A stretch of DNA of 64,000 nt from Rhizodiscina lignyota (GCA_010015805.1 ML978122.1:1460453-1524452); one strand, 5' to 3'. Positions 20,901 to 47,651 are shown, numbered from the stretch's first letter. Made by a program: numbers and translations. The notes: generated by a model not told the origin, from the letters alone.

Positions 20901-23900
20901 GGTTCAACACGCCGTCAATTCCTTGGTACCCACTTTTCACCAGCTCTCTGCTCCAGGCGATTCTTTGAAAGAGAGACTTATGAAACCACCAGGACACACC
21001 AATGGTCTACATCCGAACTTCATTGGCGCCGACATCGCATCGAATATTGCCCCACGTCCACGGCACCATCAACTACCTATCTCCAAGCGAAGAGTCCTTC
21101 GAAATAGAATCGCCTCGAAAGGAACATCTTGTGTTTGGCTCGAATGTTCTTCGGAACTTTTGGTCCCAAGTATGGATCCATTCTTTCATCAAGCATGCAG
21201 GCCTTGCAAGACCCCTTGACGACTTCCCCAAAATTTAGCTCTTCCAAACTCTTCCGATGCCCCGACGTATATTTAATATCCGGTCTCCTTCTAATAACGG
21301 CTTGAGGTGGGATGCTAGGTGCTTAGGCAGGAGTAACCTCCGAAATGTTGGCCTCTGTCAGCGCCGGGCATTAAGGCCGAGCCATATTTCGTCGAAATAT
21401 TTCGGGCGGGGAAGAAGAGCCTGGAGAATACGACCGACGGAAATTATAAAGTTGAAGAGAAGCTCGTCTCCAAAATCCTAGAGCGCATTTGTTCACTGGA
21501 TATCAAACTGAGTCTCTACACATCAGATGAAAAGCATCTGATCAGCATTCCTCTGGACGGCCTCTGCCACGTTGTGGAAGCTGCGTGTCCCCAATGCGGA
21601 CAAAGGCGATTCCTGATTCAGCCCAATGGAATTCCTTCCGGTCAATCCGGTTTTCTCAGTTTGCGATCATCCGCTGGGCGACGGAGATTTCCCTGGCCAA
21701 GCCTCTGTATGTTGTGCAGCCTGCGAGTATTACGCCGAATGGGGCAACTCCTCCGTCCGACCATTTCACAATTACGGAGACGATGTTATGGCTCATCACA
21801 CCCACCGAGTCCGGTCGGAGACGTAGTGTAAGGTCTTGCAAGGCTACACTGCGGTTGACGTCTACGAGTATTTATTCCCTGGGGATTTGCGGTCAAACAA
21901 GTACCAACTTTGTGTATTTCTGGGATTTCGCGCCCCCTCTCATACAAGCCTTTAAATCTCACCGGTCTGACAGCGGCCGCTGTTAGATACAGCATTCTCC
22001 ATTTCGCCCTTCGTCAACATCCAATTCGTAAAATGTCTCAGATTTCAGTTACACAGGCAGCATGCGCACAACTCGCTTTCTTTTCTCTGTCTGCGATAAT
22101 GACTAGGGCAAGCGGTAATCCCACCGCATGCGAGACCGAACACGAACGTCCAATCCGACGCGGACGCCTTGTCAACAGCACAAGACAACTCTGGGGAGCT
22201 TCAGATCCTCCGACGCCAACTTCTGCTCGAATTCTCCTACGTCATGCGTAACATGATGTTGACGTCCGACGGGCGTAAATGAGGCTCTTAGCCAGGAGGC
22301 GAGTTTCACAACAGGCATGGCGGCCAACAATAGCCCATCTGGCCCCAGTAATACCTCTATTAGATGGATGACCTCGGACTTGAGCGTTTGAGGGACTTCG
22401 TCAAGCGACAGGCGACGCAGACAATCAACGTATTTTGCTCGGCACCGGCGCCTCGAAAGCTTGTATACCCGGATCGTTTAGGCAAGAATGTGGTATTCCT
22501 TCTCGGTCTCACACCAAGACCCGCATGCACACGGGACACGCAATGGGGCTCTCGAGCGGGCGTATTACTCGTGGGAAGTTTATCGATGGATCGAGCGATC
22601 GGGGTGAGGGATCAATAACGCTGGACGGGAAGGATCTGAATCCCGGCGCCCTCCCTTGCTGTGCTATGCAGGGCCACGGTGGCTCGTTCGCCGCAGCGGC
22701 ACTTGGCACCCACACGATCTCGGTCCGTTCCTCGCATCTCCGAAGCTTGAGAAGAGCTTGATTTCCTATCGCAGTTCTCGCCGTATCGAAACCTGACGCT
22801 GGTCGCAAGCTTTGTTCTACCATCGCCTCTTTGCCGATGAGTTGTTGCTTGCTGGAGCGGAGCATCGCGTCCGAAAGTTCAGCAGAGGCCGCTGCCGCCC
22901 CCGCAGATCCCCTAGCAAGTCACAAAGCTGCTTTTAGGCAAGACTAAACGGCGTGGTCCCACTTGGATGCTGCGAGTGTTTGCTTCTGCCAAGTGGTGAG
23001 CACAGCGACTACGTCACTCGTCATATTTGGTGCTTGTCACGACGACCCGGCAGTGTGGTTGGACGTAGCACTAAAGAGCACTAAAGAGGATATGAGTGTT
23101 GTCTGTTGAGGACCGTTGAAGTGCCGAATGCGTGGATGAGTGCTCCACTTGCGCTGGGGTTGAGCGGCCGCAATTGGAGCAGCACGCGAGAGACTCGCAC
23201 ACTGGATCACGCCTATGCAGATCAGCCGGCTTGTCCGTCAACGATCGACCAGTGCTTGGCGAACGTGGTTGGTTGTATTGAGTCGCAGCTTGTTGGATTG
23301 AGCCAGGATTTCGCTTATCTTGACGTCCGCCTGCTATCCCACACCCACCTGATGGCCACATCACCACCCCCACCCCACGCTTGTCATGCTGGCCTAAACT
23401 CTACATGCCTGCGACCAGCCATTGTGAGCGCCAGGTAGGGAGCATGTGAAGCGCTGCAATGCGCTTCTAGCAGTTGGACCAACAGACACCTCCAGTAAAC
23501 GACGATGGGATTTGCTTTCGCGCCTTCCGCCACTGGCTTCGTTGCGAGCACGGTCTCTAGCGTTATGTAAGTGCTATAGTTCTTTTATCGCTCTTCTCCA
23601 CAGTACAGTCACTACAGTGCATTTCGTCTATACTGTTTTGCCGCCCCTAGTGGTAATCTTACGGTAAGGCACATTCGTAACTCAGCCACTTGCGAAACAA
23701 CGCAGCTACGGCTGAAGTTGTCCGCTATACCATGGTGGAGGTCAAGGCGTCAGGCGTCTAACCCTACGGCTCGCTATGGTATTGCAAGCATCTCAGCTAC
23801 AGGGGCTTCCCCCGTCTTGGGCTTGAATGGGTACGAGCTCTATCTATACCATACATATCCACGAACTTCCGTTATTGACCATTCGTTGCTGATCGGAATC

Positions 23901-23942
23901 CTTCACCTTTTGTATCTATTCGTTTCCTTTCTATCTTCGCCT

Positions 23943-26847
23943 ATGTCGACTCAATTTCCTCACCATCCCCCGGATATCCACTCCCAATTATCTCAAGACC
24001 TTGGCCGGTCTGGGTCGTTCAAGAAGCCCGAGATGCCAACCTCAGCTTGCATGAGCTGCAACCGCCGCAAGCTGAAATGCGACAGAGAAGCGAGCGGATG
24101 CAGCAATTGTGTGAAATCGGACGTGGTAAGAATTGCCATACGCACCTATCTTAGTAACACGCTAACATTTATGTAGACATGTTGTTCTCCCGCTTCGAAT
24201 TGCCAAGTTGTTCTCATGCTAACAGCTTCGCTAGGCATCTATCCCCCGCAGAAACGAGCAGCTAGGCGTAAACGGGGCCCGTACAACAAGGAGAAGACGA
24301 GGAGGGAGAGGGAGCTTGAAGCGTCTCTGAAGTCGTTGGGTCTCAAGTCTCTCGAACTCACCGATTCTTTTGGAAGTCAAAGTATCAGCATTCCAGGTAG
24401 CTTTGATGGGATCCCGACAACTGGAGCTGTTGGCGCTCCATTCGGTGCGGACCCTGCGGGCGCCATTGCACAGTGGGCAAATGCGATACACGGAATCAAC
24501 AGCCACTCGACAACCCCAAACAGGAGCCCGGAGAAGAAGCATGTCATGCATAATATGCAACAATGGCCTGTTCTACCGCCAATTGCAACAGACCATGCCA
24601 TACCGATGCAACACAGCGCTTCATATGGACCTCCAATGGCGTACTCCCACTCTCCAGAACAGACGCACAGCAGTCTTCTTCTTGAGAATCAGCATGATCT
24701 TATCTTCGGCTCTCCAACGTCGACGACTCCCTCGCTGTACCCTTTGCATCCACCTTCGAGCCAAATACTGGAGTATTGGCAAATATTCACGGTCAACAGT
24801 ACGTCAATCCACCTCTACACTCAGTGTAACGAAGCTAACAAGCCTAATAGTTGATCCTGTAACGAAAGTGCTTCATGTGAGTAGTGTTCCGCATGCTTTT
24901 CGACGTTCTCTGCTCAATGGCCTATCGATGGAAGTCATCGTCATTCCTCCCCAATCCTCTTTCTACGAGTCTCGAACCACGTCCATGAGAATGTTGCATC
25001 ATCAAATATCTGTTCATCGCGACTTTCGAACTTGTAATCTCAGGTCTTGATTCTCCACTGCTTCTACGGTCTTCGCCTTTGGAGTTTTCGCTCCCGGAAG
25101 TCTCACCTTGCTGATTAATCTCCAACGCTACAGGTACCTTCATTTGGGAGTCATATCATGGAAGCGAAGCTCAATCTTCAAGCGCTTGATGTCGGCCTTG
25201 AGGCTCTCATGTTCGCTGTTTATTTTGCAGCGGTCACCAGCCTAACTCCAAGCGAGTGCCAGATGCGCTTCGGAGAAGGCAAGGAAACACTGTTAGCTCG
25301 GTACAAAGTTGCCGTGGAAAAGGCCTTGGGAAAATCCAACTTGCTCACGTCACAAAATATCATGACATTGCAGGCACTTACACTGTACTTGGTAAGGTTA
25401 CGATATGGCCTCAAAGAGCTGCAGACGTGCTAACCCGAGTAAAGTCATGCCTCCGCGTCACCGATACCAGCAGGATGACATACACTCTGACTGGCCTCGC
25501 CATACGTCTTGCCAGATCCATGGATTTGCATTTAGACGATCCGCGTCTCAATCTTTCTCCGTTCGAAAACGAGATGCGAAAACGACTGTGGTGGACCATT
25601 TGCTCATTAGAGTGTCGTTCTGCCGAGGAGTACGGCTTTCATCCGTCTCTCGGCGGGCAGACATTCGATTGTTCACTCCCACTCAATGTCAACGACGAGG
25701 ACCTTGACCCGGACTCTACTGAGCCCCCTGAGTCCCGGCCCGGATGCACCAGCATGACATGGGCTCTCGTCAGATTCGAGCTGGCAAAGATTATCTTCCG
25801 CGTTTGGAACTTATCGTCGAAGCAAGACAAAGACAAAAGTCTAAACCCTCGAGACCTCGAACTGGAAAAGGAGCGGATCCTTGACGACGGCCAACGCCAT
25901 CTTGAGACGCAGTATCTGAAATATTGCCGCAGCTCCCGCCCTTTTGACTGGATGACGGCCACTTTTACCCGGCTGATGATTGTAAGTTACCGCCCCAACT
26001 ACCCCTCGCAAGTCACCCCACGGCGACCCACATGACAATTCGCCACCCATGTCAAACTTTGCTAATACTGTCGCAGACGAAATTGAGACTAATACTACAT
26101 CATCCGTTCAACCCCGATGCCGTTCATCCCTTACCCAAGGAACTGAGGGAGAAATGTTTCCATACGTCGATCGAAATCCTTGAACAGTCTTCTCTTTTGA
26201 GAAACGAGCCTCGCATCAAGCGATGGATCTGGATTTTCCTCAATCACCATCAATGGCAGGCTCTCTCGTACATTCTATCCGAACTATGCCACCGCACCGG
26301 AAGCGAGCTCGTTGACCGAGCATGGCGGATCGTAGACGAGACAGTCGCCAACTGGGACGACAGATACGACAGAGTCCGACAGAGCGTCATGTGGGAACCA
26401 ATGAATAGGCTATTGATCAAAGCCCGTCAGGTCCGCGAGCATGACCTCATCTCCAGGCAAAACTCCTACGCCAGCTCTAGCAGCGACCATAACCAGCATA
26501 CCAGTCCCAATTTTATAGATCCCTGGGCTTCGAACAATACGTTCCAGCAGACAGAGCCCTTGACCATTGCGCCGTCAGCCGTCACCACCCAAGGAGGACC
26601 TCAATTCGGGAGCTTTGAAGAGCCATGGTTCGGAAATGCTTCAGTCACGTCTGCGGACCTCATGCTACCAAATATGCCTACTTTGTGTCCAGATCCGGTC
26701 GAGTCCGGCTTCTCGACGCCTCTGCAGCCGAGCACGTCCGCTCCAACAAGGACGAATTCGGATCTGCAGTCTCTCGTTGAGGGATTCGAAAGTCTTCGGC
26801 CCGACGAGTTTGCAGCGCTTTTCGAGAATTATCCGATGACTTATTGA
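23943..26847 (+). CDS. Zn(II)2Cys6 transcription factor, candidate regulator of the adjacent NRPS-like cluster
   Basis: SACMSCNRRKLKCDREASGCSNCVKSDV-T-CIYPP (last Cys completed via a 4-nt microexon), NIDPVTKVLHVPS, GLAIRLARSMDLH, EMRKRLWWTIC, LPLNVNDEDL. Confidence 0.9.
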
Positions 26848-27372
26848 TGAAGTTATGATTGTCTCTTTTCGGAAGGGGCTTTGCCTCTATCCCGCTTTTC
26901 AGCGACCTTCGCAGTACACATCATCTGGGAGAATATGAACTTCTTTGCGGCGTTTTGGTGGAGAAACACCAAGGCGAGAACAGGATGGGAGGTCTTCTGA
27001 GGCGATTTTTTATTCATTTTGCTCCCGGCGTTTGTCGGCGTCCTAATGGCAAATATGCCTTTTATACCATACAAGAACGGTAAGGGTGGACGGTTGCAGC
27101 ATGAAACATTTCGCATCGCGTGGAGGGAGGAAATTGAGTGGACGAAACTCGGACCTACGGAGTAGTCGTAACTCCGAGGTCACATGACGTGATTGCAAAC
27201 GGGAATTAAGTGTAGCACTTTAACTTTGAAAGTCAGCTGCAAAAATGGACATACATGAGCTGACGCTCTAAATATCGAGATCGAGATCAAATTTACCCTA
27301 TGACTCGACTATTGCTCTATTTATGCACATTAGATGTCATTGGCTTAGCAGTGAAGCAGTCGAAGGGTATAT

Positions 27373-28799
27373 TTACTGCCCCAGTTCCGCGGCCTGGCCC
27401 TGCCGGCCCAAGGCCCCTTCGCCCCCCTCGCAACATGTTTCCTTACACTTGCCTCCCCTGAACCGTACACTGAGAAGTCTCTTCTCACATTTCTCGTTAA
27501 TGGTCATCTCTTTGACTGCATTCAAAGCAAGCTGTGACTGGTCGATTGGAGGAAGTAAAGAGCGTGCAGAAAGCCTCGCTTGCTGGGCCAAGATGGCATC
27601 CATGAGGACAATGGCCGCCATCGACTCTACAATAGGGACTGCTCTGGGAACGACGCATGGATCGTGCCTTCCTTGGACTTCAAGAACGCCCGGCTCCATG
27701 TCGAAGGATGTTGTGTTTTGTGTCTTTCCGATCGTTGCTGGAGGTTTGAATCCGACTCGGAAGTAGATGGGAGCGCCATTAGAGATCCCTCCTTGGACGC
27801 CACCGGAATTATTTGTCTTGGTAGTAAGGCGAGGACTTGAAAATATGCTGCTTGGGTTTCTGGAAGCTGGCGACGATGCACCAGATGGTATGAACGCATC
27901 GTTGTGGATCGATCCTGGGAATTCAGTGCCATCAAAGCCGGAACCAATCTCAAAGCCTTTCGACGCGGGAATGCTCATCATCGCAAACGACAGCATAGCT
28001 TCTAGTTTATGGAAAGCTGGCTCTCCCAACCCGGTTGGTGCATTTCGAATTACACAGGTTACACTGCCGCCGATGCTGTCTTTCCTGTCACGGTATGTCG
28101 AGATCACCTGGCCCATTCTGGAAGCGCCAAGGGGGTGTGGGCATCGTACGGGTGCATAAGAATCGACCTGTTCCCGGGTGACAGTCTTCAGGAGATGCTC
28201 GAATTCCGAGTGAGGCTCCAGAATGAGCTGGTCTACGGTTCTAGGAAACAGCTTTTCAGATCCGACCGATGAGACGAAGGCTACGATCTCGATCCCGTGC
28301 GCCTGGTATAAGTACTTTTCTGCAATGGCGCCCGCAGCTACCCGACCTTTCAGTCCCATAAAGTCAGCTGTCCGTTTAGGTTCTGTTTCGATATCTACGT
28401 ACCGATGGTCTCACGAGCACTGCTCCTACCACCTCCCGAAGATGCTTTGATGCCGTATTTCTCCAAATATGTCCAATCCGCGTGACTTGGACGAGGGTAT
28501 TGATCGATTTTCGACCTCTTATAGTCCTGCGGCCGTGTGTCTTCATTTCGGACCATTAGAGCAATGGGAGTGCCAAGGGTGACTCCGTTCTCGATGCCGG
28601 ATTGGATTTCGATTCTGTCTTTTTCGTTCCTAGGAGAGTTCAGGACGCTCTGACCGGGTCTCCTCCTGTTCAGCTGGCGATGGATGTCTTGCGAATCGAG
28701 CTGCATTCCTGGCGGCACATTCTCGACGATGCAACCTACGGAGCGACAGTGCGACTCTCCGTACGTCGTAACGCGAAAATGCTCTCCAAAACTCGACAT
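27373..28799 (-). CDS. aro2: Chorismate synthase (ARO2/aroC family), 2 exons; probably a cluster paralog
   Basis: [103 protein letters not shown]. Confidence 0.96.
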
Positions 28800-29210
28800 G
28801 ACGAAATCTCAGTGGCGAGGATTTAGAAGAAAGAAGCTTCAAAAGGGAATAAGGGTCTAACGGTGCACCCCAGATTATGTATATCAAGCTAACTCGAGCC
28901 AGAATGCCATCATCGTTTGCATCACCAGATCCATTTCTCTTGCATTCTCGATCGATTATCGATCGAGATTCAAGAATGGACCGAAGGCCTTGGCCTTTTC
29001 GGCGGTGGACCATTATGACGCTGGTTCAGACAATTTCAGGGTCGCGCAAGCTCTACAGTCCCACTGGAAGCGCGTCATAGCCCTCACGACAGGCTTTGCC
29101 ACCTCTTATACTCTCTAGCTCGAGGCAGTCTAGGCCAGTCTTTGTCTCTACATTGGCCTCCTCTGTGGAGTTGAGGCTGACGATGTTGAAATCCCCGAAT
29201 ATTTTTGCCT

Positions 29211-29222
29211 TTTCGGCCCCGA
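29211..29222 (+). promoter_or_regulatory. TTTCGG-CC-CCGA candidate Zn2Cys6 site in the chorismate synthase / prephenate dehydratase divergent promoter
   Basis: Inverted CGG triplets with a 2-bp spacer; the same pattern occurs three times in the DAHP synthase / NRPS-like promoter. Confidence 0.5.
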
Positions 29223-29431
29223 CAGGGGTGACATATGATGCGCAGACCCTGAGAGGTTTCGCCATGTGCGTTACGAAAGAGGAAAGTCCTTTCACGAATA
29301 TCCTCTTCTCAAACAGTTAAATATTCAGACCCTGGAGACCCTTTGGAAGTCATTGCCCCAAGACTTGAATATTAGACGTTCAAAAAGCCTCCTAACATAA
29401 ACACAAACACACACACAAACACACACACAAA

Positions 29432-30611
29432 ATGAACTGCGAAGAACCGATTGTTGCATACCTTGGCCCAAAGTCTAGCTGGACTTCCCAGGTTCGTTTT
29501 CATGCATGACGCTTATTCAATCCTTTACTTGCTTTTCTGCAACAGTACTAATGCTCTTCAACCAGGCTGCAGAGAAATGCTTTCCCGGTTCGGAATATCG
29601 TCTGACACCTAAAGAAACCATCCAAGGCAGGTCCACGCTGACGGTAAATGAGACTGATACTAATCCGCTTCATCACAGACGTCGTAGAGGCAGTCCAGAG
29701 CGGCAAAGTCGACCGAGGCGTAAGTACCCCGTATACTCGCAGCTTGGCAACATACTTACAATGTGAGACAGGTCATACCTTTCGAAAATAGCTCGAACGG
29801 AACCGTTATCACAACGCTAGATACCCTTTCCACGTCACACTTGGAGTGTTCGGACCTCACGATAGCTGGCGAGACGACGCTCAAGATATCGCATTGCTTG
29901 CTTGTGCGGTCAATAGAGCATGGTCAAATCACACCTCCCGACTCCCCTGCTGGTGCAGGTACCCCCGCAGACCATACAGATCAAGGCTCGCGAAGCCTGG
30001 ACGGCTCCGCATTCGCAGAATTAAAGCGGATCAAGCACGTATACTCGCATCCACAAGCGCTGGGCCAATGTCGGGAGTTCTTAGCGGCGAACTTGCCGTG
30101 GGCGGAGCTGCACCAGACCTCCTCGACTGCCGAAGCCGCAATTATCGCATCAAAGGACCATACCAACTCCTCGGCCGCCGTCGGCAGCGTGTTGGCGGCG
30201 AGGCAAATCGGCCTGCGCGTGCTGCTTGAGGGTGTGCAGGACGTGCGCGAAAACTCAACACGGTTCCTCGTGCTCAAGCGCGACCCTGCTGATGCGCCAC
30301 CGTGGCATTCTTCGAGAACCCATCCGGAAGGCGAGCAACGCAAGCTGCTCGTGTCGTTCGCAATCGACCAGCGGGCGCAGGGCAAATTGGCCCATGCGCT
30401 AAGCACGTTTAATAAACCCAGCATCCAGCTCACGAACATCCATTCACGCCCGAGCCGCAAATCGCCGTTCCACTACGTGTACTTTGTGGAGATCCAGTGG
30501 CGTGCTGAGAAGGATGGCGGACAGCAGCTTCAGGACGCGCTGCGAGACTTAGGCAAAATCTCACAAAGTCGCCGCTGTCATGGCACTTGGGGGCCGACTT
30601 TAGAGTGGTGA
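29432..30611 (+). CDS. pha2: Prephenate dehydratase (PHA2/pheA family), 4 exons
   Basis: VAYLGPKSSWT, VIPFENSSNGTV, VYSHPQALGQC, SSTAEAA, ENSTRFLVL (TRF catalytic motif), ACT domain with GKLAHAL and IHSRP. Confidence 0.93.
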
Positions 30612-33600
30612 TTAGATGCAACTGGGTGTGGGATGGGATTCCCACGGTGCAAGTTTGATGGCTAGGCGGCACCGCACCGCGTGGGATGTTCGCTTCTTGT
30701 TTGGCATGTATGTACAGTACTTTGGGATAGGGTTTGCGTTGGCGTTGGATGCGGAAATTGATCTACCAAAAAGTTTAGTATGGCAATGTACAATATCCGT
30801 GATATTTCCTGCAATGATCTGATTGTGGCTACCCTGTCTCGTGGATCGCGGTTCGGGGGTTCTGCCTCCGCTGACCGTCGTTGTGGGATGACCCTCAATG
30901 GGAGCTATTTGTGGGTGTGGAAATGCATGTGTCGCTCCACTGATCCTCGCGAGTTGGCAAAGCAAAGATAATTGTTTCGCGACCAACAGCACGAACTAGG
31001 CTTAATGGCGTTCAGTGTGCTCTGGCGTGATTCTAGCCACCCCTGCGAGATGCAGCAATCAGTCGAGATGCACTGTTCCAGGCACTTGGAGGATTTGATG
31101 AGAAGGGGTATGCAGTACGCCATCCTTTGTAAGTCGCCTTACCTACCACGCCCAGCCAGGAGTAAGAGCAGCAATCTCGAGTCTTGGACTTCTCCATACG
31201 AAGTGGTGGACCATGTGCTCTAGACTCAGTCTTACAAGACCAAACCCCACGTCATACTCGCGAGCTTCCACCGTCCTGGGCACGCGTTCAGGGTGGAGGC
31301 GCTCGCACTTGCGGGGACGTCCCTGGATGGCGGAATGGCAGCTACAGCTGCGGAAACGAGTTTCTAACGACACCCAGGCTTCGACATGCACCTTGTGGGT
31401 ATTCAGTGGGGTAGCGCCACTCTCGGGAGCCAACGTTTTGCCCAGCACCCTGTTGCCTGCGCAGATCAACGTCCTGGCGGCATCCTCTCCACCCAGTCAG
31501 CCAGGAGCCGCAATCAGCTTGCCGGTAGACTAAAAGAGTCCCTTGAATTGCACCCTCGTTCGCACGTCCATGCAAGCCGTGCCGAAATGCCTGTTGCGAA
31601 AACTCCGTAAAGCCTCGATTCGGAAATTAACTGCCAATCACCAACACTCGTTAAGGAGCAACTCCTCCGTTCCTTATACAACGTTCGGGCCCGGAAGCTG
31701 CTCCGGGATTCGTTCGTTTGCTAACCGCCCATGGCATTTCGAACCCGAACCACCTTCGAGCCTCATGCCCATTCTCCATAGTCTTGCACTAGGTACTGCA
31801 GCGTGCAGCCTGCTCCGCGAGGAATCAGTTAGCCACCATCTCAGTCCGTTCCTCAACCAGTCCAGTCGAGACCGCAACATCCTCTCCACAACTTTGAGAG
31901 ATGCATACGCGTGTTCAGACGGAGTACTTGCACTCGTTTTGCTCGCGTGGGGAGCGTTCGAGGTCGGCTATTCGCAACAGCCTTTGCACTCACGGGTACC
32001 AATTGCCCATTCACCCCTGTGCCCTCATCCGGCCCTAGGAACTGTGAATCTGTATCTTCCTAGTCAGCTTACTGAGCTTGCGTGAGGGTAGATACCAATT
32101 GCCCATTTTTACGCGGATGCCGGTGCACGTTTATCGCATCCAGAATGATATGGCTTTCGATTGTGCCATCTCCGACTCTCGTAAAATTAAAGACCCTGAA
32201 TATTCCTTCCGTCAGATTCAGTATGCCCATGTCAGGGTGAGATTCACGATTCGGATCTTGTTCTACCGTAAATAGAATAAGCAACGCCCAAGTCGCTCTT
32301 ATCTCTACCGGGCTTGTGTCGAAAGCAGACGAGGCCAGCGATCTTCTTAAAGGGTCCTTTCTGTATGCGGTAGCGGATGGCATTGACTACTTCAAGCGAA
32401 CCCTGAAGGATGCCAAAGCATTTCGCAGGCCATTTGCAGGATGACGACATATTTCTGAGAGACGTCAATCTGACCATTAAGGTAACGAGAGCGTCGCTGA
32501 CTTGTGATAAGTTTACATGATTCCACATTGAGCGCATCAATAGTCTTCACCATTATCTGGAATTGAGGTACACATTTCGTCCCGGAATGCACAATTGACC
32601 GCAGCAGGCGCTTCGAGTAGCATTCGCATCTGCCGTATGCTGTAACATCAGCCATTCGGCATCCGAAACGCTTGAGTAAGGATCCACAACGGCAAATGCT
32701 CGCTTGAGTCAGGAAGTTCGTAATCACTATCGTGAAGTGGTGCGGTTCAGCCCCAAAGCTCGCAACCGGTACTGTCAAAGGACGGAATCATCTAGTTTGT
32801 TCCGTAATCTCTCCGGATACATGCTGGCCAACATCGTATCGAATTAGCTTCCACGTCTTCTCGTGTGCTGAGGAGATCATGACTGCAGAATCGCGTTCCA
32901 CAGCATGCAAGACATTTTGCGTTCGCCTTGCTTTTTGCATGCCCATAAGCAGCTATTATCGCGGCATGGTCCGAAGCAAGTATACTAGGCGACCGGAGTG
33001 ATTTAAACACCGCGGAATCGCGGGATTTGCTCACACGATACTACCGGAGCTGTTAATTAATTAATAGAAGAGTTGAGCGTAACTGACGCGTAGCGAAAGG
33101 CGTCGACTCTCCAGACGTCCAGGATAAGTAACCCTAATGGCCGAAGCGGCCGCTGAGAAGCGCAAGCCGTATAGGCAAGGAGGTTAGGTGGAAAGAAAAT
33201 GGAATCTGGACCAAATGAGAGACGTTAATTAGGGGAGGAATTCTACTCCGGAACGTTTACTAAACTTTTGAAGATGCATTTGCTTAAAATGTCGAAATTA
33301 TGTAGATACTTTCGGAATAATCACGTGATATAAATTTGGCAAGAGCTGAGCTCTCGGCTGAGATTGAGGGAATTTGGATGATTGAGGGTAATAATGGTAT
33401 TAACGTGCAACCGAGCTTATCCTTGAAGCACTTTCAGAAAGACCCACGAAATGAAGGGTGTTTTCCAGTTGTCCGTGCCATTGCCTTGGCGTTATAAATT
33501 AGTCCGAGACGAGCCGAGCTGGCAGGCCCTGCAGTGCCGCAGCCGCAGTTTGTCGGCCAACAAACTTCGCCTCCTCCGGAAACGCTCGCCCTCCCATTTC

Positions 33601-33922
33601 ACCAACTCATCCACTTCTCTTGCGTTGTGGCTGTTCACTCTCACTTCTATCTGTGTCATGTTTCTTTTCATGTAGCAGCATAAGGATCACTTGTCTTATA
33701 TCGTCTATGACGAGTCGTTCTCGACCCATGCGTAAATGACAGACGAGATTTGGCCATGGGAACGCGTTGAAGAAAGTGCCCTAATCCCAGTGCTCGTTCT
33801 CCTTTGAATGCTGTCTACAATCTATTTCCGCCAGTATCATACAAATGCGACTCCCCAACACCTCAAGGCTAGCGATATGCGAGATCTGACAATTGGAAGT
33901 GAAGGGTGAATGAGGACTAATT

Positions 33923-35251
<1,329 letters not shown>

Positions 35252-35500
35252 CTTGAGTGAAAGGGATGTTGATGATATCTCTGGTATGTCGGGTTTTTAT
35301 CAAATCTTTGGCGTCACGTTCTCAAATGATCCTGAAGTCTGCCTCTCGACGTTTTGGGCTTCTCGAAGGATCCGCTGCTTTTCATATTGGTGATTTTCCC
35401 TTCGGGACTTACAGGCCAGCTCAAGAGCCGCTAAATTTGCCCGAGCACTATACTGAGACAGTATCTCGGCGAGGTATCGTGTTGTTCTCCGACCCGTGAC

Positions 35501-35933
35501 TTTCGGGGCCGTGTGGGTGTGGTTAGGTATGCCGAGCCAGGGTCCCTCACAACGACCATCGCAACCTTTCGCAGAGACTATGAACCAATCTTCGCGTGTC
35601 CTGGTCTCAAATTACAAGACGCGGATGACTGTAGTACAAATTCGAATTGCGTCCTGGTAGTTTACTAAAGGCTTCGAGCAGTCACATTTTTACTCGAATA
35701 TTTCGACGCCTCGCAACTCATAATTACTATCAGTGCGCAATCACCATCGGCACCGAATGTTTACTTTTCAGTGGCTGATGATACTTTTATGGACTCACTT
35801 GCCTCACAGTTCGGCTTGCATTCGGCGGCAAAGCCAGCTGTGCTTGCGAGCTCCCCAGACCAATGACGAAATCTACACTATCAATGCCAAATTGTAAGAC
35901 GAACCAACGCGCGACTGTGCCTTTCGGGACCGA
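35501..35933. promoter_or_regulatory. Three TCGG-N2-CCG sites in the DAHP synthase / NRPS-like divergent promoter
   Basis: TTTCGGGGCCGT (35501), TCGGCACCGAAT (35747), TTTCGGGACCGA (35922). Confidence 0.5.
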
Positions 35934-36161
35934 CCATGCGGATGTCGTGGTGTTCTCCATTCTCAACAGCAGGAGATCTCGATGATGTAGCACTAAGCCA
36001 AGATGCAGGATGTGAGTATACATATTGCCGAGTACTCAGGGCATCATAGATTCTTCGGATCAGTCAACGCATCTTTATATCCCTCGAAATCTCGATTCTA
36101 CACAAAAAAGGCCCTTTTACTATACTGACTCAGGGCACGGTACTATCACAGTTCATCTGCA

Positions 36162-39114
36162 ATGGCTCCAGGCCGCGTCGACCCTCTGCCTCAAACTGAG
36201 GTCCTCTCGGCCAAGGCCCCGAAGAACCTCTTCCAACTCCTCACAAACGCAGCCCGCGAAGCTACTGGCCGCGGTCTCTCCTACTATGCTCCTAACAACG
36301 TAAAGAAAGTCAGCGCGACGACGACATATGCCGACCTCCTCCAAACCGCCACTAACAATGCGAAACTCCTCCACTCCACCACGGGCATCGCTCCAGGATG
36401 CACCGTTCTCCTTCACTTCGATAACCACAGGGACAACATCGAATGGATGTGGTCCGTTCTTGCCTGCGGTTTCCTTCCAGCGATCTCGACCCCTCTCAGC
36501 AACGATAATGACCAGCGCAAGCGCCACCTCATGCATCTTCACCGACTGTTGAAGAATCCAGTCGTTCTTACCAAGGAGTCCCTCGTCATGGACTTCGAGA
36601 CCGTCAACAACCTTAACATCCAGACTATTGAGTCTATCCGCACCCTGCAGCCGAAAGAGGATGAGACTCTCGCGGAGCAAGGCCTCTTCAAGGAGGAGGA
36701 TGAGACTGCTATGCTCATGCTTACTTCTGGCTCGACTGGCAACGCTAAGGGTGTCTGCCTCCGTCACGGCCAGATGCTCCGCGCGATTAAGGGCAAGAGC
36801 TTGTTGACCGGCACCACTCCTAACGATGTCTTCATCAACTGGATCGGTCTTGACCACGTTGCGAACTTGACGGAAACTCACCTCCACGCCATGAGCTTGG
36901 GCGCTGATCAAGTTCACGTCCAGGCCGCAGATATGCTTGCGGACCCCCTTTCCTTCCTGGACCTAGTCGACAGGCACCGGGCTATGTACTCTTTTGCTCC
37001 GAACTTCTTCATGGCCAGCCTCCGCAAGGCTCTTGACAACCCCGAGGAGGTTGGTTCCCGCAAGTGGGACCTTTCCTGCCTGACCTCTCTCATCTCTGGT
37101 GGTGAGGCCAATGTTGTTGAGACGGCCGACGCTCTCACCAAGCAGTTGCAGAAGTTTGGTGCTCCTAACAACTTCATCCGCCCCGGTTTCGGTATGACCG
37201 AGACCTGCGCTGGCTCCATCTACAGCAAGGACTGCCCTGCATACGATATCGAGAACAACTGGGAGTTTGCCTCCCTTGGATCCTGCATTCCGGGTCTTCA
37301 GATGCGTGTCATGCTCGACAATGGTCTCTCCGCGCCACCAAACGAAGTCGGTGGTCTTGAGCTCTACGGCCCAGTGCTCTTCAAGGAGTACTACAACAAC
37401 CCCTCTGCCACCAGAGACTCGTTCACCTCTGATGGATGGTTCATCACTGGTGACCGCGCCTTCATTGACAAGAAGGGCCACATGGTTCTCGCTGGCCGTG
37501 CCAAGGAGACCATCATCATCAACGGTGTCAAGTACTTCCCTCACGAAGTTGAGACGGCCATTGAGGAGGCCAACATCAAGGGTGCCACCCCATCCTTCAC
37601 TGCTGTGTTTCCTCACCGCCCCAAGGGCTCCCAGACTGAGGTCCTGTGCGTTACCTATCTCCCCACATTTGAGCAGGACGACATTGAGACTCGTGTCAAG
37701 ACTACCGACGAGATCACGAAGGTCACCATCCTTCAATGCGGTGTCAAGCCGTACAAAGTCATTCCTCTTGAGAAGAAGTTGCTGCCAAAGACCACTCTTG
37801 GCAAGCTTTCCCGCGCCAAGATCCGAAATGCCTTCGAGCAGCGCAAATACGACTCTTATGCCGAGGCCGATGAGAAGCTCATCAAGGACTTCCGCAGGGC
37901 TCGCGTTGAGAAGCCGAAGACTGACCTCGAGGGGTCCATTCTGGACTGCTTTGCCGACCTCTTCGAGGTTCCGGACGATGAGGTTGGCGTCAACACTTCT
38001 CTTTACGAGATGGGCGTCAGCTCCATTGAGATCATCAAGCTCGCCACTTTCATCCGCAGGAGGCTCAACTTGGATGAGGAGATTCCAGTCATCACGATCA
38101 TGACCAACCCCACGATCCGTGGATTGGCAAAGGCTATTGAGAAGATGCAGGGCCCCGCAGAGTACGAGCCGGTCGTCTGCCTGCAGCCAAAGGGCGACAA
38201 GGTTCCGCTCTTCCTCATCCACCCTGGTGTCGGCGAGATCCTTGTCTTCCTTAACTTGGCCAAATACATCACAGACCGCCCCGTGTACGCCATCCGTGCG
38301 AAGGGCTTTGACGGAGAACAGTACCACAAGGACATTCCGGAAATCGTGAAGTGCTACCACGACGGTATCAAGAAGGCTCAGCCTAAGGGTCCGTACGCTC
38401 TTGCAGGCTACTCATACGGTGCCATGTTGGCATTTGAGACTGGTAAGCTGCTCGAGGCTGGCGGTGACGAAATCAAGTTCCTTGGCAGCTTCAACCTGCC
38501 ACCTCACATCAAGGTATGCACCCCCTCACTCCGGTCCCGAAAATTGGGCCCGAGGGGGACTATTTGCTAACCAATACCAGATGAGAATGAGGCAGCTTGA
38601 CTGGATCGAGGTGTTCCTTAACCTTGCATACTTCCTTGGTACGCATCCAACCTAGATTGAAGGCAATGCATCGATGCTGACACATAGCGCAGACCTCATC
38701 TCTGATGACTACGCCCACGCCATCTCTCCTGACATGCACAAGCTGTCGCACAGCGACGTGCTTGACTTTGTCATCTCCAAGGCGCCGCCAGAACGCATGG
38801 AGGAGATGGCGTTGTCGAAGGAGAAGCTCGCCAACTGGACCTCCATCTCCCACTGGCTGCACTGCATCGCGCACCACTACGACCCATCCGGCTCCATCTC
38901 CTGCATCGACGTCTTCTACGCCATCCCTCTCCAGGCCGTGGCCAAGGACAAGAGGATGTGGCTCGACAACCACCTCAACAAGTGGAACGACTTTGTGCGC
39001 GAGGACGTGCGCTTCACCGAGGTCGACGGCGCCCACTACACCATGATGAGCCCGTCGCACGTCGGCTCGCTGCAGAAGAAGCTGAGGGACGCCATGGCTG
39101 CTCGCGGCATCTAA
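36162..39114 (+). CDS. NRPS-like A-T-TE enzyme (aryl alpha-keto-acid dimerising synthetase family: AtrA/TdiA/MicA/ApvA-like), 3 exons
   Basis: A domain MLTSGSTGNAKGV, WIGLDHVANL, GFGMTETCAG, DGWFITGD, LPKTTLGKLSR; T domain GVSSIEI; TE domain HPGVGEIL, GYSYG, SFNLPPH, GAHYTM; no condensation domain. Confidence 0.95.
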
Positions 39115-39547
39115 GCTGGAGTAGGTGCGCGTTTCTTGCTGGCCGTAATGGAACTTTGTGTATGCGAATGAGCGAATCCACATTGTACAATATGTTTCCA
39201 TTTGTATTCTCACATCTTTCGGCGCATTGTGGCTTGCGATTAGATTGCTGGGGTACATAGAAGAATAAAGATAGAACCTTTCTTTTCAAGAACAGTTGTC
39301 TGCGCCTATTCATCCTGCATTTATCGCTCATTGCGCAAATGAGATGTACGTGAATTGTTCAATTGAGTGAAATTACGTCGTAAAGAACCGAAAATCTAAT
39401 GCGACAGTCAGATCTGAGGATTACTGGTAGTGGTTGAAACTCGGATTTGGACCAAGTAAAAATATTTTACAAGGTCGAAAACCAGATTGAATGATTGATT
39501 ACATGGATGCTCAGAATATAAATGCAATGTTTCTTGGATATTGTTTC

Positions 39548-39802
39548 CAGTGTTCTGTGTTCAGAGTGTGTTCAGAGTGTGTTCAGTGTTCAGAATGTGT
39601 TCGGTGTTCAGAGTGTGTTCAGAGTGTGTTCAGAATATATTCGGTGTTTAGAGTGTGTTCAGAGTGTGTTCAGAGTTCGGAATGTGTTCGATATTCAGAA
39701 TGTATTCAGTGTTCAGAGTGTGTTGGATGTCCAGAGTATGTTCAGAATATGTATAGTGTGTTTAGAGCTGTGTTTAGAGCTGTTTGAAGTGTGTTTAGAG
39801 TG
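39548..39802. repeat. Degenerate minisatellite with approximately TTCAGAGTGTG units
   Basis: About 250 bp of variant TTCAG(A)GTGTG units visible directly. Confidence 0.9.
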
Positions 39803-41425
39803 CCGCATCTTGCGATAGATACAGTGCTTGGACGGCGGGTCTGGTGCTGCAAAAGACATTAAGCGTATATATTCAATGTTTAAACATCTCTTGGGGAAAA
39901 TAGGGCCTCTCGTCCGATCGACCGTACTCAACCCCCAAAGAGGGAGGCTAGTACCATGGCTGGGTGACCACATGGGAATCCCTCCTGTCGTATGTTTTTT
40001 TGTTCTCCTCCAGATAGTGTCTTTTGGTTTCTTTCCTTTCAATTTGGCCATCTTCGTGCACGAATGGGGATGGATGGCAGCGACATTGGTAACCCTGAGA
40101 CAAATTTTTTCGATGTCCCCTGTCTCGCCGCTGTCGGACTTCCCAGCACACGCAGACTCCTTGCTTTCTCCTCTTTCTCACAAGCAGTTTACTGCAGACG
40201 TGCCCTTCGACCATTCGTGCGAATGGAGAACGAGGTCGGTCTTCCTGCTTTTGGCGTAATTCGAAACTGGACCTTGCAGATGTTCCCGTCCTCTTCATCA
40301 CCGCTCCCGATGGGCCCTTTCGCGCTTCTCTTCCATGTCGATAGGCTTGTCCTTCCAGATCTTCGGTCTATGAGCAATGCAGTCCGACCAGATGCAATGA
40401 ACAGCAGACGGAATTAAGTATCATGACCGATATCTCTACATTTCGATAACCTGATCTCCATCACGCGTCGTTCGAGATGTCGCGCGCTCACATAGAGTGC
40501 GGAATCTTCTCCGACACCTCAGAGCTCTATCGTTCATGGCGCGCGCTGCTCCCCTTTTGGCCGGATACAACGTAGAGCCCCTCTTGAGCTTCAATCCTTT
40601 CTCGGCTTGAAGGAGGAAGCGTCCAATGGCTACTCTAACTAATGAGCCATCTAGCAGTGCAGCATGCCGCTAGGTTTGAATTAGATGCCATTCTGACAGC
40701 TTCTGACAGCTCCCCGCAATGAAGCTTTGCGATGAAACCTTGCGTCTGCAGATCCAACCATTAAACTCTCAGGCCACCGGAAACGATCTGGACTCGGGCC
40801 AGCCGCCAGCCGCTCGCACAGCTACGCTATCCTATCAATTGCACTAGATTTGCTTTCTGAATGCTCCTAAGCGTTGCATGAGTCAAGATCGGGCGCAGCC
40901 GCCACGCACGCCATCCCCCGTCGGACAGGTGGAGTGATACCACGATCCGATGACGAGTCCTCATGTACCGGCCGAGCTCTCCACATGGTTCGACCAACAC
41001 GACATCTAGGCTCCACCAAACCTTATCGCCAATGCTGTGCACATGCTCTCACAATATTCATGATTCCGCCAGGCCGGCGTTTCCGGTCGCGAGAGGACCA
41101 ATTAGAGGCACTGGATGAAGCACCGAGAGCGACACACACACTTCTGGAGTAATGGCACCTCCGGTGATAATGGACACTATCAGGGTTGCCGTTCCTACAT
41201 GAAAGATCCGATGCGGGGCCCAGAAGGGCCCTGACGTAGTCTTCAAATTTTTTGACAGTGTAAACACGAGACCTCTGCCTACTATAAGTGCTTGTGTCCC
41301 TTTTCTGGTTTTCCTTCAACTCAATTGAATCCATCCTAACTTCGAATCCTCCACCTCTCCTCTCCCAACAAACAATTCTGGTATATCCAGCTCTACTCGC
41401 ATATCACAGCAGATACAACAGCATC

Positions 41426-42591
41426 ATGGCACAGAACATTCCCAAGAAGCAGATGGCCCAGGTCATTGAGAAGACCGGCGGCCCAGTTCAGTTCAAAGAA
41501 ATCGACGTCCAGCAACCTGGCCCAGATGAAGTCCTCGTCAACGTCAAATACAGCGGCGTGTGCCACACAGATCTCCACGCAGTAAACGGCGACTGGCCGC
41601 TACCTACGAAGCTCCCCCTTGTCGGTGGTCACGAGGGCGCAGGTGTCGTAGTTGCAAGGGGTGAGCTTGTCAACGAGATTGAGATTGGCGACCATGTCGG
41701 TATCAAGGTAGCTTTCAATTATTCTGGTTGGAATACTCCCGGAATCCTGACATCAGTTGCAGTGGATAAACGGAACATGCTTGGCATGTGACTTCTGCCA
41801 GCAATCCGACGAGCCTCTCTGCGCAAAAGCTCTCCTTTCTGGCTACACAGTAGACGGCTCATTCCAACAATACGCCATCGCCAAGGCCGCACACGTCGCT
41901 CGCTTGCACAAGGACATCCCGCTCGATGCGGTAGCGCCAGTCCTATGCGCAGGTATCACCGTCTACAAGGGCCTGAAGGAGTCCGGTGTGCGGCCTGGCC
42001 AAACTGTGGCCATCGTCGGTGCTGGTGGCGGTCTCGGAAGCTTGGCCCTGCAGTACGCAAAGGCTATGGGCCTACGATCGATTGCCATTGATACCGGCGA
42101 CGAGAAGAAAGATATGTGCGTTAATCAGTTGGGCGCTAGCGCCTTCGTCGATTTCGCAGCAAGCAAGAACATCGTCAAGGATGTGCAGGCGGCGACTGAG
42201 GATGGTCTGGGCCCGCACGCCGTCATTCTTGTCGCTGTGAGCGAGAAGCCCTTCCAACAAGCTGCTGAGGTAAGCGATCAATTCGGTTTTCAACACGAAT
42301 CAGGCTAATGTGTTGCAGTACGTTCGCCCAAGAGGAACTGTGGTGTGCATAGGTCTTCCAGCTGGCGCATACCTGAAGGCACCAGTTTTCGAGTCAGTCA
42401 TCAAGATGGTCACCATCAGGGGCTCGTACGTCGGCAACAGGAGAGACAGTGCAGAGGCACTCGACTTCTTCCGCCGTGGACTAATCAAGGCCCCGTTCAA
42501 GGTCGTCGGCTTGTCGGAACTGCAGAGCGTGTACGACTTGATGCACAAGGGACAGATTGCGGGACGATATGTGCTGGACACCAGCAAGTAA
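41426..42591 (+). CDS. adh1: Zinc-dependent alcohol dehydrogenase (ADH1/AlcA-type MDR), 3 exons
   Basis: [19 protein letters not shown], structural Zn cysteines CLACDFC...[31 protein letters not shown]. Confidence 0.95.
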
Positions 42592-43815: not shown

Positions 43816-44561
43816 AGCTTCTGGAGTGGAGGTTGAGGACTCAAGGAGAGTTACACGCGATCAATCACTGAAAGGGCATAGATCAAAGTACAGCGTATCA
43901 AGTAAGGGGCAGACCTCTTCGATTTATACAGGAGACGATGCACATCGATGACGGTGGAAAGGGTGAGGGCGGCGGCAAGAGCATTGTGAGCGTGCGTGCG
44001 GCTGACGTCTAGCAGAGCCAAATGAAAGCCGGCGCGTCAATTGCGGGGAATGCGAAATCTGGTGCGAAATCTGGGGAAGGGCGGGACGGAGACTGCAGCT
44101 GAAGCAAATCGCTTTTACAGGGGCAAGACACGCTCTGCTTGGTCGAGATGTCGTCGAAAGAATGCAGGCTACAAGGTGGGACGAAATGCGCGCGCACATT
44201 GTTTGTCTTTTACTCCGAGCATTACTTTGCAGCGCTTCACTTTGCTGGGCAGTGAGCGTGAAGACAGGTACCAAGTACCGGCAGCCACCGACACACGCCG
44301 ATTTCGGGAGGCTTGCTCGCCCAGGACCGCGGCGACCGCTGTTTTGCAGTAGCAAAACCCTGTCTATTTCCGGCTCTCCAGCGACCATGTCTCCGCTGCC
44401 GGACTGGCCAATAAGGTATATATCGAGCCGGCTTCAAAGCCGCCGTGGAAGCAGATGGAGAGCATCAAGATCATATTTTAGCATTTAGGATAGACGCAGG
44501 CGTTCAATTGGCTCCCATAGACCATCCCCTCATCTACTTTCTCATGTCTTGACTCTCCAAC

Positions 44562-47283: not shown

Positions 47284-47651
47284 TCAGTATGGGCCGCCGC
47301 CGACTTGTTCTTGGTGGACTTCGAGCGTGTCGCCGTCCGTCATCTCGAGCTATTCACATCCGCTATTGTTAGAAACAAAACACTTGAGGTGGCGCTGTGC
47401 GCGTGCAGACATACCGTGTCGGGCGTGTCGTTGGGCTGGACCCTCTGGCCGTCGAACAGAAACCGCACGGCCGTTGGCGACTTGCCCTGGCGCTCGCAGA
47501 AGGCGTCCATCAGCTTCTTCAGAGCGGTGGACCGCTTGATCTTGAAGAAGACCTCGTTGTTGTTGTCCGTGACCTTGATGTTCAGGTGTTCGCTGGCCTG
47601 GGGAGTGACATCGCCAGCTGGGCCGCCCGGAGTGTGATCTGCGTCGGACAT
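47284..47651 (-). CDS. SMT3: SUMO (small ubiquitin-like modifier), 2 exons
   Basis: EHLNIKVTDNNNEVFFKIKRSTALKKLMDAFCERQG...RFLFDGQRV...TPDT-LEMTDGDTLEVHQEQVGG-GPY*. Confidence 0.96.

Follow-up and report, generated by a model that had tools for sequence, protein, structure and literature searches.

A five-gene locus of Rhizodiscina lignyota with an AcyN-related NRPS-like synthetase and a putative supply line for phenylpyruvate

Does the locus described here encode, beside a synthetase predicted to consume phenylpyruvate, the enzymes that would supply it? A window of 64,000 nucleotides from scaffold ML978122.1 of the Dothideomycete Rhizodiscina lignyota (GCA_010015805.1) was analyzed, and positions 23943-39114 contain genes for a Zn2Cys6 regulator, chorismate synthase (CS), prephenate dehydratase (PDT), DAHP synthase and an A-T-TE NRPS-like synthetase. 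DAHP synthase is the entry into the shikimate pathway, CS catalyzes its last step, and PDT converts prephenate to phenylpyruvate. The placement of three enzymes of the same pathway within 8 kb, beside an enzyme that would use their product, is, we infer, far beyond chance among some ten thousand genes.

Genes were identified by Pfam searches of stop-to-stop ORFs, followed by construction of spliced gene models (Table 1). The scan covered 32 + 89 + 104 ORFs (at least 100 aa in the cluster region, at least 90 aa in the flanks; E ≤ 0.01 or 0.001) and might overlook short exons. The spliced models form two divergent pairs, CS/PDT and DAHP synthase/NRPS-like synthetase, and none of the five reading frames is interrupted, with canonical motifs present; genes, strands and pairing are thus as given in the original prediction. 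The regulator (Zn_clus, E 4.3e-5; Fungal_trans, E 3e-15; plus strand, within 23580-26032) starts with the ATG at 23943, carries the Cys-rich motif in exon 1 and ends with the stop at 26847. Aminotransferase, chorismate mutase and prephenate dehydrogenase families had no match in the 32 + 89 + 104 ORFs, nor in 43 further ORFs of at least 60 aa from the two gaps; the predicted absence of an AtrD/TdiD-type aminotransferase therefore holds among the scanned ORFs. Stretches without recognisable genes are located at 30612-33922 (28 ORFs of at least 60 aa, none reaching the gathering score of any Pfam family), 39115-41287 and ~18.2-23.9 kb, and a repeated element adjoins the 3' end of the synthetase gene.

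Table 1. Features of the R. lignyota locus (positions counted from the first letter of the window)
Feature	Position	Strand	Details or basis
Zn2Cys6 transcription factor	23943..26847	+	several introns, exon structure partial
Chorismate synthase paralog, 456 aa	27376..28799	-	exons 28799-28403, 28346-27376
CS-PDT divergent promoter, 632 bp	28800..29431	.	gene models
Prephenate dehydratase paralog, 333 aa	29432..30611	+	exons 29432-29491, 29566-29626, 29679-29719, 29772-30611
Stretch free of recognisable genes, 3.3 kb	30612..33922	.	Pfam on ORFs
DAHP synthase, type I-alpha, Aro4-like, 384 aa	33923..35251	-	exons 35251-35155, 35102-35047, 34996-34273, 34200-33923
DAHP synthase/NRPS-like divergent promoter, 910 bp	35252..36161	.	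gene models
Non-reducing NRPS-like synthetase, A-T-TE, 943 aa	36162..39114	+	exons 36162-38513, 38581-38638, 38693-39114
Zn-dependent alcohol dehydrogenase-like gene, 3 ORF pieces	41288..42588	+	Pfam

The clustered CS (Chorismate_synt in two exons, E 7.1e-50 and 1.2e-70) is identical to the public model P0122 (KAF2102922.1), and its GRHDPC and a further catalytic motif are intact. R. lignyota has two CS proteins, encoded on separate scaffolds of 3,322,451 and 2,588,593 bp. In a tree of 46 sequences, the second protein (P0154; 82% identity to the Aplosporella enzyme) lies inside the Dothideomycete housekeeping clade, among its counterparts from related species, as expected of an ARO2 ortholog, whereas the clustered CS does not; it falls into a long-branched clade of three sequences (SH-aLRT 100) outside the 43 housekeeping sequences. 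All three members of this clade share a C-terminal extension of ~40-50 aa that is absent from P0154. Since P0154, encoded on a different scaffold, belongs to the housekeeping clade, the clustered CS is, by its position in the gene tree, an extra, divergent paralog.

The clustered PDT (Pfam PDT, E 1.7e-38) is encoded by four exons, of which the fourth is 100% identical to the public protein KAF2102923.1 (P0242). The public model skips 13 residues that are present in the relatives P0246-P0248; a model that retains these conserved residues requires a GC donor, its second intron being GC-AG. The protein has a catalytic domain with an intact TRF motif ('NSTRFLVLK'), an 'SRPS' motif, and a C-terminal ACT-like regulatory domain; Pfam ACT (PF01842) is annotated in many housekeeping PDTs, though not in P0242-P0246 or P0248. 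The first regulatory motif reads GKL, as opposed to GAL in the housekeeping forms, and a tail ...RCHGxWGxxLEW is conserved among the paralogs. Among the best 120 of 1300 matches, three proteins share 67% identity with the clustered PDT, another three share 42-44% and none of the others exceeds 42%; only one PDT of R. lignyota is present. In a tree of 43 sequences, the clustered PDT belongs to a clade of eight (support 99), apart from 35 housekeeping PDTs in four well-supported groups that we label Dothideomycetes (21 sequences), two Lecanoromycete groups, and Sordariomycetes with Cirrosporium; it does not group with the enzymes of related species, as a PHA2 ortholog would. Judged by this tree, the clustered PDT is a separate lineage from the housekeeping PDTs. 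The gene trees, and for CS the second genomic copy, are as anticipated for CS as a recruited paralog of a primary-pathway enzyme and for a PDT distinct from the housekeeping clade.

The DAHP synthase (DAHP_synth_1, E 4.6e-70) could be aligned residue by residue with the structure of yeast Aro4 (1hfb, E 1.4e-101). It has the fold and the N-terminal extension, whose exons were located, as well as Gly at Aro4 position 226, the tyrosine-type residue (compared with the G226S entry 1og0), and is on these sequence features of the tyrosine-regulated (Aro4) type; the residues corresponding to D154 and Q159 of Aro3 are likewise Asp and Gln. At the position of the inhibitor-contacting Lys229 of Aro4, however, it has Glu (Glu237), and Lys is found in all seven nearest relatives. 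The feedback-resistant Aro4 allele in standard use is K229L, and K222 and Q159 are named as inhibitor contacts in Aro3 (PMC10349828, available text). The same lysine of a tyrosine-type enzyme is thus replaced as in the engineered yeast allele, by a natural Glu rather than by Leu, with an effect that is predicted. Since the enzyme appears to be tyrosine-regulated in type and has Glu at this position, feedback probably inhibits it only weakly, and phenylalanine probably does not switch it off; Glu is no proof of feedback resistance, because it is not rare in the wider family (K 44, E 17, Q 14 among 134 representatives).

The synthetase is encoded on the plus strand, with all three domains in a single ORF (AMP-binding, positions 62-422, E 5e-37; PP-binding, 604-670, E 3.3e-11; Thioesterase, 693-792, E 3.5e-23), and has the domain order and, at 943 aa, the size of TdiA/AtrA/AcyN-type enzymes (~920-980 aa). 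The McyG A-PCP didomain is its closest relative among solved structures (E 2.6e-84), and its best named match is AcyN (59%), the only characterised enzyme among the 120 relatives listed, many of which are from lichen-forming fungi. In the alignment, synthetase and AcyN are 58.3% identical over 925 positions (59-66% in each domain), with nearly identical segments between the adenylation core motifs, and with an identical thioesterase motif (GxSxG; GYSYG) and carrier motif (GVSSIE). In a FastTree of 106 sequences, AcyN being the sole characterised enzyme included, the synthetase belongs to a clade of eight (support 100) with a protein of Hortaea werneckii; this clade, the AcyN clade (25 sequences) and a clade of 42 form a fork without resolved order. 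AcyN produces polyporic acid from phenylpyruvate by dimerisation (PMC9047271), and AlfA produces it from phenylpyruvate as well (PMC12105029), according to the available text of both sources. The synthetase most likely condenses two phenylpyruvates to polyporic acid or to a closely related terphenylquinone, as its resemblance to AcyN suggests; 58% identity fixes neither substrate nor product.

The original prediction knew of no characterised precedent for such a cluster, which is not so for DAHP synthase but stands for the addition of CS and PDT. In the available text of PMC9047271, a DAHP synthase and a Zn2Cys6 regulator are clustered and co-expressed with acyN in the ascocorynin cluster (acy) of Ascocoryne sarcoides, and the DAHP synthase, co-expressed with pigment formation, is read as precursor supply. 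The allantofuranone cluster (alf) of Allantophomopsis lycopodina is described, in the available text of PMC12105029, as comprising AlfA, AlfS (a DAHP synthase), AlfR, a dioxygenase, a dehydrogenase and an O-methyltransferase. The R. lignyota locus likewise has synthetase, Zn2Cys6 regulator and DAHP synthase adjacent to each other. With acy it shares the A-T-TE synthetase (58-59% identity), the zinc-cluster regulator and the adjacent DAHP synthase, whereas gene order differs, and chorismate synthase and prephenate dehydratase are named 0 times in PMC9047271; the hydroxylating monooxygenase is unlinked in A. sarcoides, as far as that source describes it, and none was seen at the R. lignyota locus either. 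With alf it shares a (here predicted) polyporic acid synthetase, DAHP synthase and C6 regulator in one cluster; PMC12105029 contains the words 'chorismate' and 'prephenate' 0 times. A dehydrogenase belongs to alf as described, and in R. lignyota a Zn-dependent alcohol dehydrogenase-like gene (ADH_N, E 8.5e-17; ADH_zinc_N, E 1.4e-11) is found 2.2 kb downstream, as a possible tailoring gene of uncertain cluster membership. Unlike in alf, no ring-cleavage dioxygenase or O-methyltransferase was detected by Pfam among the scanned ORFs of the window, and an allantofuranone-type end product is therefore not expected. The tdi (terrequinone) and atr (atromentin) clusters follow the same logic, with aryl-pyruvate supply encoded beside a dimerising synthetase; there, supply runs backwards from the amino acid by transamination (TdiD, AtrD; for TdiD as dedicated aminotransferase see PMC9047271, available text), whereas in R. 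lignyota it would run forwards. No precedent for CS and PDT in a cluster of synthetase, regulator and DAHP synthase was found in the literature searched, and only this addition appears to be new.

We consider it probable that the locus is an AcyN-type secondary-metabolite cluster for a pigment-type compound derived from phenylpyruvate, with its regulator and a dedicated three-enzyme supply of that precursor. Upon activation of the cluster, the three copies, which would be co-regulated with the synthetase, would raise the flux from central carbon metabolism to phenylpyruvate, and the synthetase would be fed the alpha-keto acid directly, bypassing transamination of phenylalanine; for the AROM steps and chorismate mutase, the fungus would rely on its housekeeping genes. 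A relative may have the same arrangement, as a synthetase of the same clade of eight (P0004) and a PDT of the paralog clade (P0247) are both JGI entries with a contig size of 13168. Chorismate mutase is a regulated step between CS and PDT, and the lack of a gene for it in the cluster (ORFs scanned) counts against such a supply line. Another member of the synthetase's clade (P0003) lies on a contig of 712,789 bp, a length shared by no PDT or CS among the matches listed, so that supply genes probably do not accompany every synthetase of this clade. The locus suggests recruitment of three control points toward phenylpyruvate, one at the entry, one at the end of the shikimate pathway and one at the branch. 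If borne out, this would indicate which steps limit flux to aromatic precursors in filamentous fungi and would offer natural, possibly deregulated enzyme variants for the production of phenylpyruvate-derived compounds; the paralog clades are potential genome-mining markers for aryl-pyruvate-derived metabolites, lichen-forming fungi included.

The same supply logic might serve another product, if the substrate were 4-hydroxyphenylpyruvate or indole-3-pyruvate, or the core a furanone, butyrolactone or dioxolanone. Just one of the 120 relatives listed is characterised (AcyN, 59%), the DAHP synthase belongs to the tyrosine-regulated class, and thioesterase domains of the NRPS-like family set differing core structures (PMC9047271 and PMC8403587, available text). 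We nevertheless regard this as doubtful, as PDT is specific for phenylpyruvate and prephenate dehydrogenase, which 4-hydroxyphenylpyruvate would require, is absent from the scanned ORFs, and as the identity to AcyN is even over A, T and TE, with almost the same adenylation-core segments.

A further view, unlikely in our estimate, is that the three paralogs constitute a conserved, portable and feedback-insensitive 'push module', a parallel branch of aromatic biosynthesis reserved for secondary metabolism, that is older than R. lignyota and common to several fungi; the C-terminal extension of CS, the tail of PDT and its altered ACT motif would then serve assembly or channelling, and the conversion of chorismate to phenylpyruvate would escape the control exerted on the amino-acid-regulated housekeeping enzymes.

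That the genes are co-located by descent in a decaying or silent cluster, no longer working in R. lignyota, is quite unlikely: long gene-less stretches inside and beside the cluster, the repeated element that abuts the synthetase gene, and a PDT with either a non-canonical intron or a loss of 13 conserved residues would fit a relic, whereas the five open frames with canonical motifs, and a CS model equal to the public one, would not.

Divergent duplicates of housekeeping genes, when they lie within a fungal cluster, are known to point to self-resistance, and CS (65% identity) and PDT (at most 44%, among the matches listed) diverge strongly from the housekeeping forms; the copies might be insensitive targets of a product or intermediate that inhibits a shikimate or phenylalanine enzyme. 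Inhibition of DAHP synthase, CS or PDT by polyporic acid is not known to us. Duplication affects three different steps that together lead to the synthetase's expected substrate, a pattern explained more readily by supply than by a single protected target, and in A. sarcoides the DAHP synthase of the cluster is interpreted as supply and is co-expressed with pigment formation (PMC9047271, available text); self-resistance is thus very unlikely. Ordinary housekeeping genes for aromatic amino acids beside an NRPS-like gene by chance, as the single R. lignyota PDT among the best 120 of 1300 matches might suggest, are hardly tenable given the orthodox second CS on another scaffold, the position of the clustered PDT outside the Dothideomycete housekeeping clade, and DAHP synthase beside a synthetase in two other fungi (PMC9047271, PMC12105029, available text).

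With respect to the two divergent promoters, a pattern search located one CGGNNCCG site between CS and PDT, at 29214, and three between DAHP synthase and the NRPS-like synthetase, at 35504, 35748 and 35925.

Stop-to-stop ORFs of the cluster region were scanned against Pfam, and gene models were built with splice signals and homology. The original prediction of an NRPS-like cluster with its own supply line to phenylpyruvate was right in gene content, coordinates and orientation: the chorismate synthase (CS) and prephenate dehydratase (PDT) genes form a divergent pair with a 632-bp spacer, and the DAHP synthase and A-T-TE synthetase genes form another with a 910-bp spacer. No match to the aminotransferase, chorismate mutase or prephenate dehydrogenase families was obtained in any scanned ORF, though a scan of this kind could miss short exons; within this scope the lack of an aminotransferase, noted originally, also held. 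The predicted features are summarized in the following table.

Predicted features of the cluster and its surroundings (positions in the window)
Feature	Position	Strand	Evidence or remark
Zn2Cys6 regulator	23943-26847	+	Zn_clus E 4.3e-5, Fungal_trans 3e-15; partial gene model
CS, 456 aa	28799-27376	-	chorismate synthase family in two exons, 7.1e-50 and 1.2e-70
PDT, 333 aa	29432-30611	+	prephenate dehydratase family 1.7e-38
DAHP synthase, type I, 384 aa	35251-33923	-	Pfam 4.6e-70
NRPS-like synthetase, 943 aa	36162-39114	+	AMP-binding, PP-binding and Thioesterase in single long ORF
Zn-dependent alcohol dehydrogenase-like gene	41288-42588		2.2 kb downstream of synthetase
CoA-ligase-type gene (succinyl-CoA ligase or ATP-citrate lyase type)	44553-46801	+	one CoA_binding, two Ligase_CoA domains
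SUMO-like gene	47343-47801	-	
Nup84/107 gene	49310-52566	+	
FAD_binding_3 monooxygenase fragment	11068-11571	+	
MFS transporter	13080-14305	-	
Second Fungal_trans regulator	15597-17987	+	
UstYa-family ORF	211-564	-	E 5e-13; left edge of window
DUF3435 fragment	3726-4028	-	near UstYa-family ORF

The best relative of the synthetase is 63% identical (1545 relatives, E <= 1e-20), and among the named relatives AcyN of Ascocoryne sarcoides ranks first (59%). Over the full length (925 positions) synthetase and AcyN share 58.3% identity, distributed as 58.9% in the A core, 59.8% in the A C-terminal subdomain, 65.7% in T and 59.9% in TE, with near-identity in the segments around the adenylation core motifs. 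These AcyN segments were compared in place of deriving a Stachelhaus-type code, because no amino-acid-activating NRPS adenylation domain was found among the best solved relatives of the synthetase. In a FastTree of 106 rows (the window's protein and 105 of the 120 matches listed, 900-1000 aa), the synthetase falls into an 8-row clade with a Hortaea werneckii protein, which forks without resolved order from a 25-row clade (AcyN, Leotiomycete and Teloschistales proteins) and a 42-row clade. Since AcyN (PMC9047271) and AlfA of Allantophomopsis lycopodina (PMC12105029) are both described to convert phenylpyruvate into polyporic acid, phenylpyruvate is, by analogy, the most likely substrate of the synthetase, whose product would most likely have a terphenylquinone core. 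A protein search with the first exon of the synthetase gave no 100% match (best 63%), unlike CS and PDT, which are encoded on the same scaffold and did match at 100%; in the public annotation, the synthetase gene may be missing or have another model.

The acy and alf clusters share with the window a DAHP synthase and a regulator beside the synthetase. In A. sarcoides, acyN adjoins a zinc-finger regulator and a DAHP synthase gene; all three are reported to be expressed only in pigment-forming conditions, and the DAHP synthase was read as precursor supply (PMC9047271). In the alf cluster, the DAHP synthase AlfS and a C6 regulator adjoin AlfA (PMC12105029). The words chorismate synthase and prephenate are absent from PMC9047271 and PMC12105029, and full-text searches of open-access papers and preprints found no fungal cluster that combines an NRPS-like gene with PDT or CS (an account in a subscription journal is possible); likewise, the supply module is not described in the part of the R. 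lignyota gene-cluster literature that was covered. The original statement that no characterised fungal cluster with a three-enzyme supply module was known stands, within the literature searched, for the addition of CS and PDT; the one-enzyme DAHP synthase arrangement is published for acy and alf. The window's cluster is a three-enzyme extension of the published one-enzyme arrangement; the original finding is real, and the main inference drawn from it is largely correct.

The pathway genes had been proposed to be recruited paralogs, and this proposal is best borne out for CS. The clustered CS exon is 100% identical to KAF2102922.1 (R. lignyota, scaffold of 3,322,451 bp), and a second R. lignyota CS, KAF2101041.1 (P0154, 416 aa), is encoded on another scaffold (2,588,593 bp) and is 65% identical to the clustered CS. 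In a 46-row maximum-likelihood tree, P0154 is placed inside the Dothideomycete housekeeping group (82% identity to the Aplosporella enzyme), and the clustered CS forms with two other proteins a 3-row clade (100 SH-aLRT), whose long branch falls outside the remaining 43 rows. A C-terminal extension is common to all three proteins of this clade and is lacking in P0154. Judged by sequence, the clustered CS is an extra copy. Its C-terminus (27376-27530) carries a stretch, '(I/V)(N/E)(E/Q)KCE(K/R)..L.V(R/K)(F/W)R', that is conserved in 3/3 clade members.

For PDT, the proposal is supported by the tree as a separate lineage. The clustered exon is 100% identical to KAF2102923.1, located on the same R. 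lignyota scaffold as KAF2102922.1. Among the best 120 of 1300 matches, the clustered PDT is 67% identical to three proteins, 42-44% to three more and <=42% to the remainder, which includes many named housekeeping PDTs; no housekeeping PDT of R. lignyota is among these 120. In a 43-row tree the clustered PDT is one of eight rows that form a clade with 99 support, separate from the 35 housekeeping rows; the latter fall into four well-supported groups, which we labelled Dothideomycetes, Lecanoromycetes (two groups) and Sordariomycetes plus Cirrosporium. It represents a separate lineage, because a PDT that was the sole copy in a Dothideomycete should fall within the Dothideomycete group. In the subclade of the clustered PDT, the first ACT-domain motif is GKL, versus GAL in three aligned housekeeping forms, and GAL or GTL is retained in a second subclade; the GKL motif may be taken as a lead towards altered regulation. 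The public model KAF2102923.1 (320 aa) omits 13 residues, GSEYRLTPKETIQ, that are retained by the paralog-clade relatives P0246-P0248; a model that includes them needs a GC-AG intron at 29627-29678 (PDT introns within 29492-29771).

For the DAHP synthase, the divergence is compatible with a paralog without proving one. The closest named relative, a 'tyrosine-inhibited' enzyme of Salinomyces thailandicus, is 62.7% identical over 365 positions, and is itself 72% identical to another near relative. The clustered enzyme matches yeast Aro4 (1hfb; E 1.4e-101) and retains Gly at position 226, the residue altered in the G226S entry 1og0, and it has Glu at the position of Aro4 Lys229, which is Lys in 7/7 nearest relatives. 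Aro4 K229L is described as a widely used tyrosine-insensitive allele, and in Aro3 the equivalent Lys together with a Gln contacts the inhibitor (PMC10349828). The equivalents of Asp and Gln are retained in the clustered enzyme; 23 of its positions depart from a residue invariant in the relatives, several of them in the N-terminal motif and around 219-236. The Glu may be a lead towards altered regulation; against a strong reading, 134 family representatives include 44 with K, 17 with E and 14 with Q at the 229 position (those <520 aa of 150, obtained with exon 3 of the DAHP synthase as query). A cluster-specific clade could not be delimited from the representatives, as the family is too conserved to be resolved by 50% clusters.

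The eight PDT and three CS rows in the paralog clades show that these copies predate R. lignyota. P0004 (in the same clade as the window's synthetase) and P0247 (a PDT of the paralog clade) are JGI proteins, each from a 13,168-bp contig, and this coincidence is the one indirect sign that the arrangement is conserved. A further pair, CS P0202 and PDT P0250, both from a 3113-bp contig, are housekeeping-type proteins, and their coincidence may be due to chance. P0003, also of the synthetase clade, is located on a 712,789-bp contig, and no CS or PDT among the matches listed has the same contig size; the supply module is therefore probably not universal. When metagenomes were scanned with seven aligned paralog-clade PDTs, 54 loci (23-34% identity) but no fungal cluster were recovered; from identity alone, these loci were rated as distant, non-fungal relatives.

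On the basis of the genes present and their relationships, we infer all of the following kinetic and regulatory steps. The cluster regulator would induce the genes, and the Aro4-type DAHP synthase would commit phosphoenolpyruvate and erythrose 4-phosphate to the pathway; the five subsequent steps would be carried out by the housekeeping AROM, chorismate would be made by the CS paralog, prephenate by the housekeeping chorismate mutase, and phenylpyruvate by the PDT paralog, for adenylation, loading and dimerisation by the synthetase. Phenylalanine arising from surplus phenylpyruvate would not switch off an entry enzyme of the tyrosine type.

The two divergent promoters share eight 9-mers and one 10-mer, close to the numbers (about 4 and 1) expected from a rough chance estimate. 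Each divergent promoter has one copy of the 9-mer CGGCCCCGA or its complement, and the rest of the window has none. The pattern CGGNNCCG consists of inverted CGG triplets, as is usual for Zn2Cys6 sites. It has 22 occurrences in the window (15.9 expected), and four of them (29214, 35504, 35748 and 35925) are located within the two promoters (1,542 bp in all); this pattern was picked after being seen, so that it gives only a weak hint.

No recognisable gene was found in the gaps at 30612-33922 (inside the cluster), 39115-41287 and approximately 18.2-23.9 kb; the ORFs in 30.6-33.9 kb, 39.1-41.3 kb and 19-23.4 kb gave no family at threshold, and their translations are non-coding in look. At 39557-40321, the contigs of sequencing run X1 (genomic contigs without joints) break and the word depth increases 3.7-fold (150 to about 558), which indicates a repeated element just past the 3' end of the synthetase gene. 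Basidiomycete atromentin clusters also contain a dehydrogenase, like the one predicted downstream of the synthetase, and one is reported in the alf cluster (PMC12105029). The CoA-ligase-type, SUMO-like and Nup84/107 genes look like ordinary housekeeping genes and set the right-hand limit of the cluster. The FAD monooxygenase fragment, MFS transporter and second regulator are located 6-13 kb upstream, separated from the cluster by ~5.7 kb without recognisable genes; a tie to the cluster is possible, e.g. in hydroxylating or exporting its product. The UstYa family is typical of fungal ribosomal-peptide clusters, and a DUF3435 fragment is usually a transposon relic.
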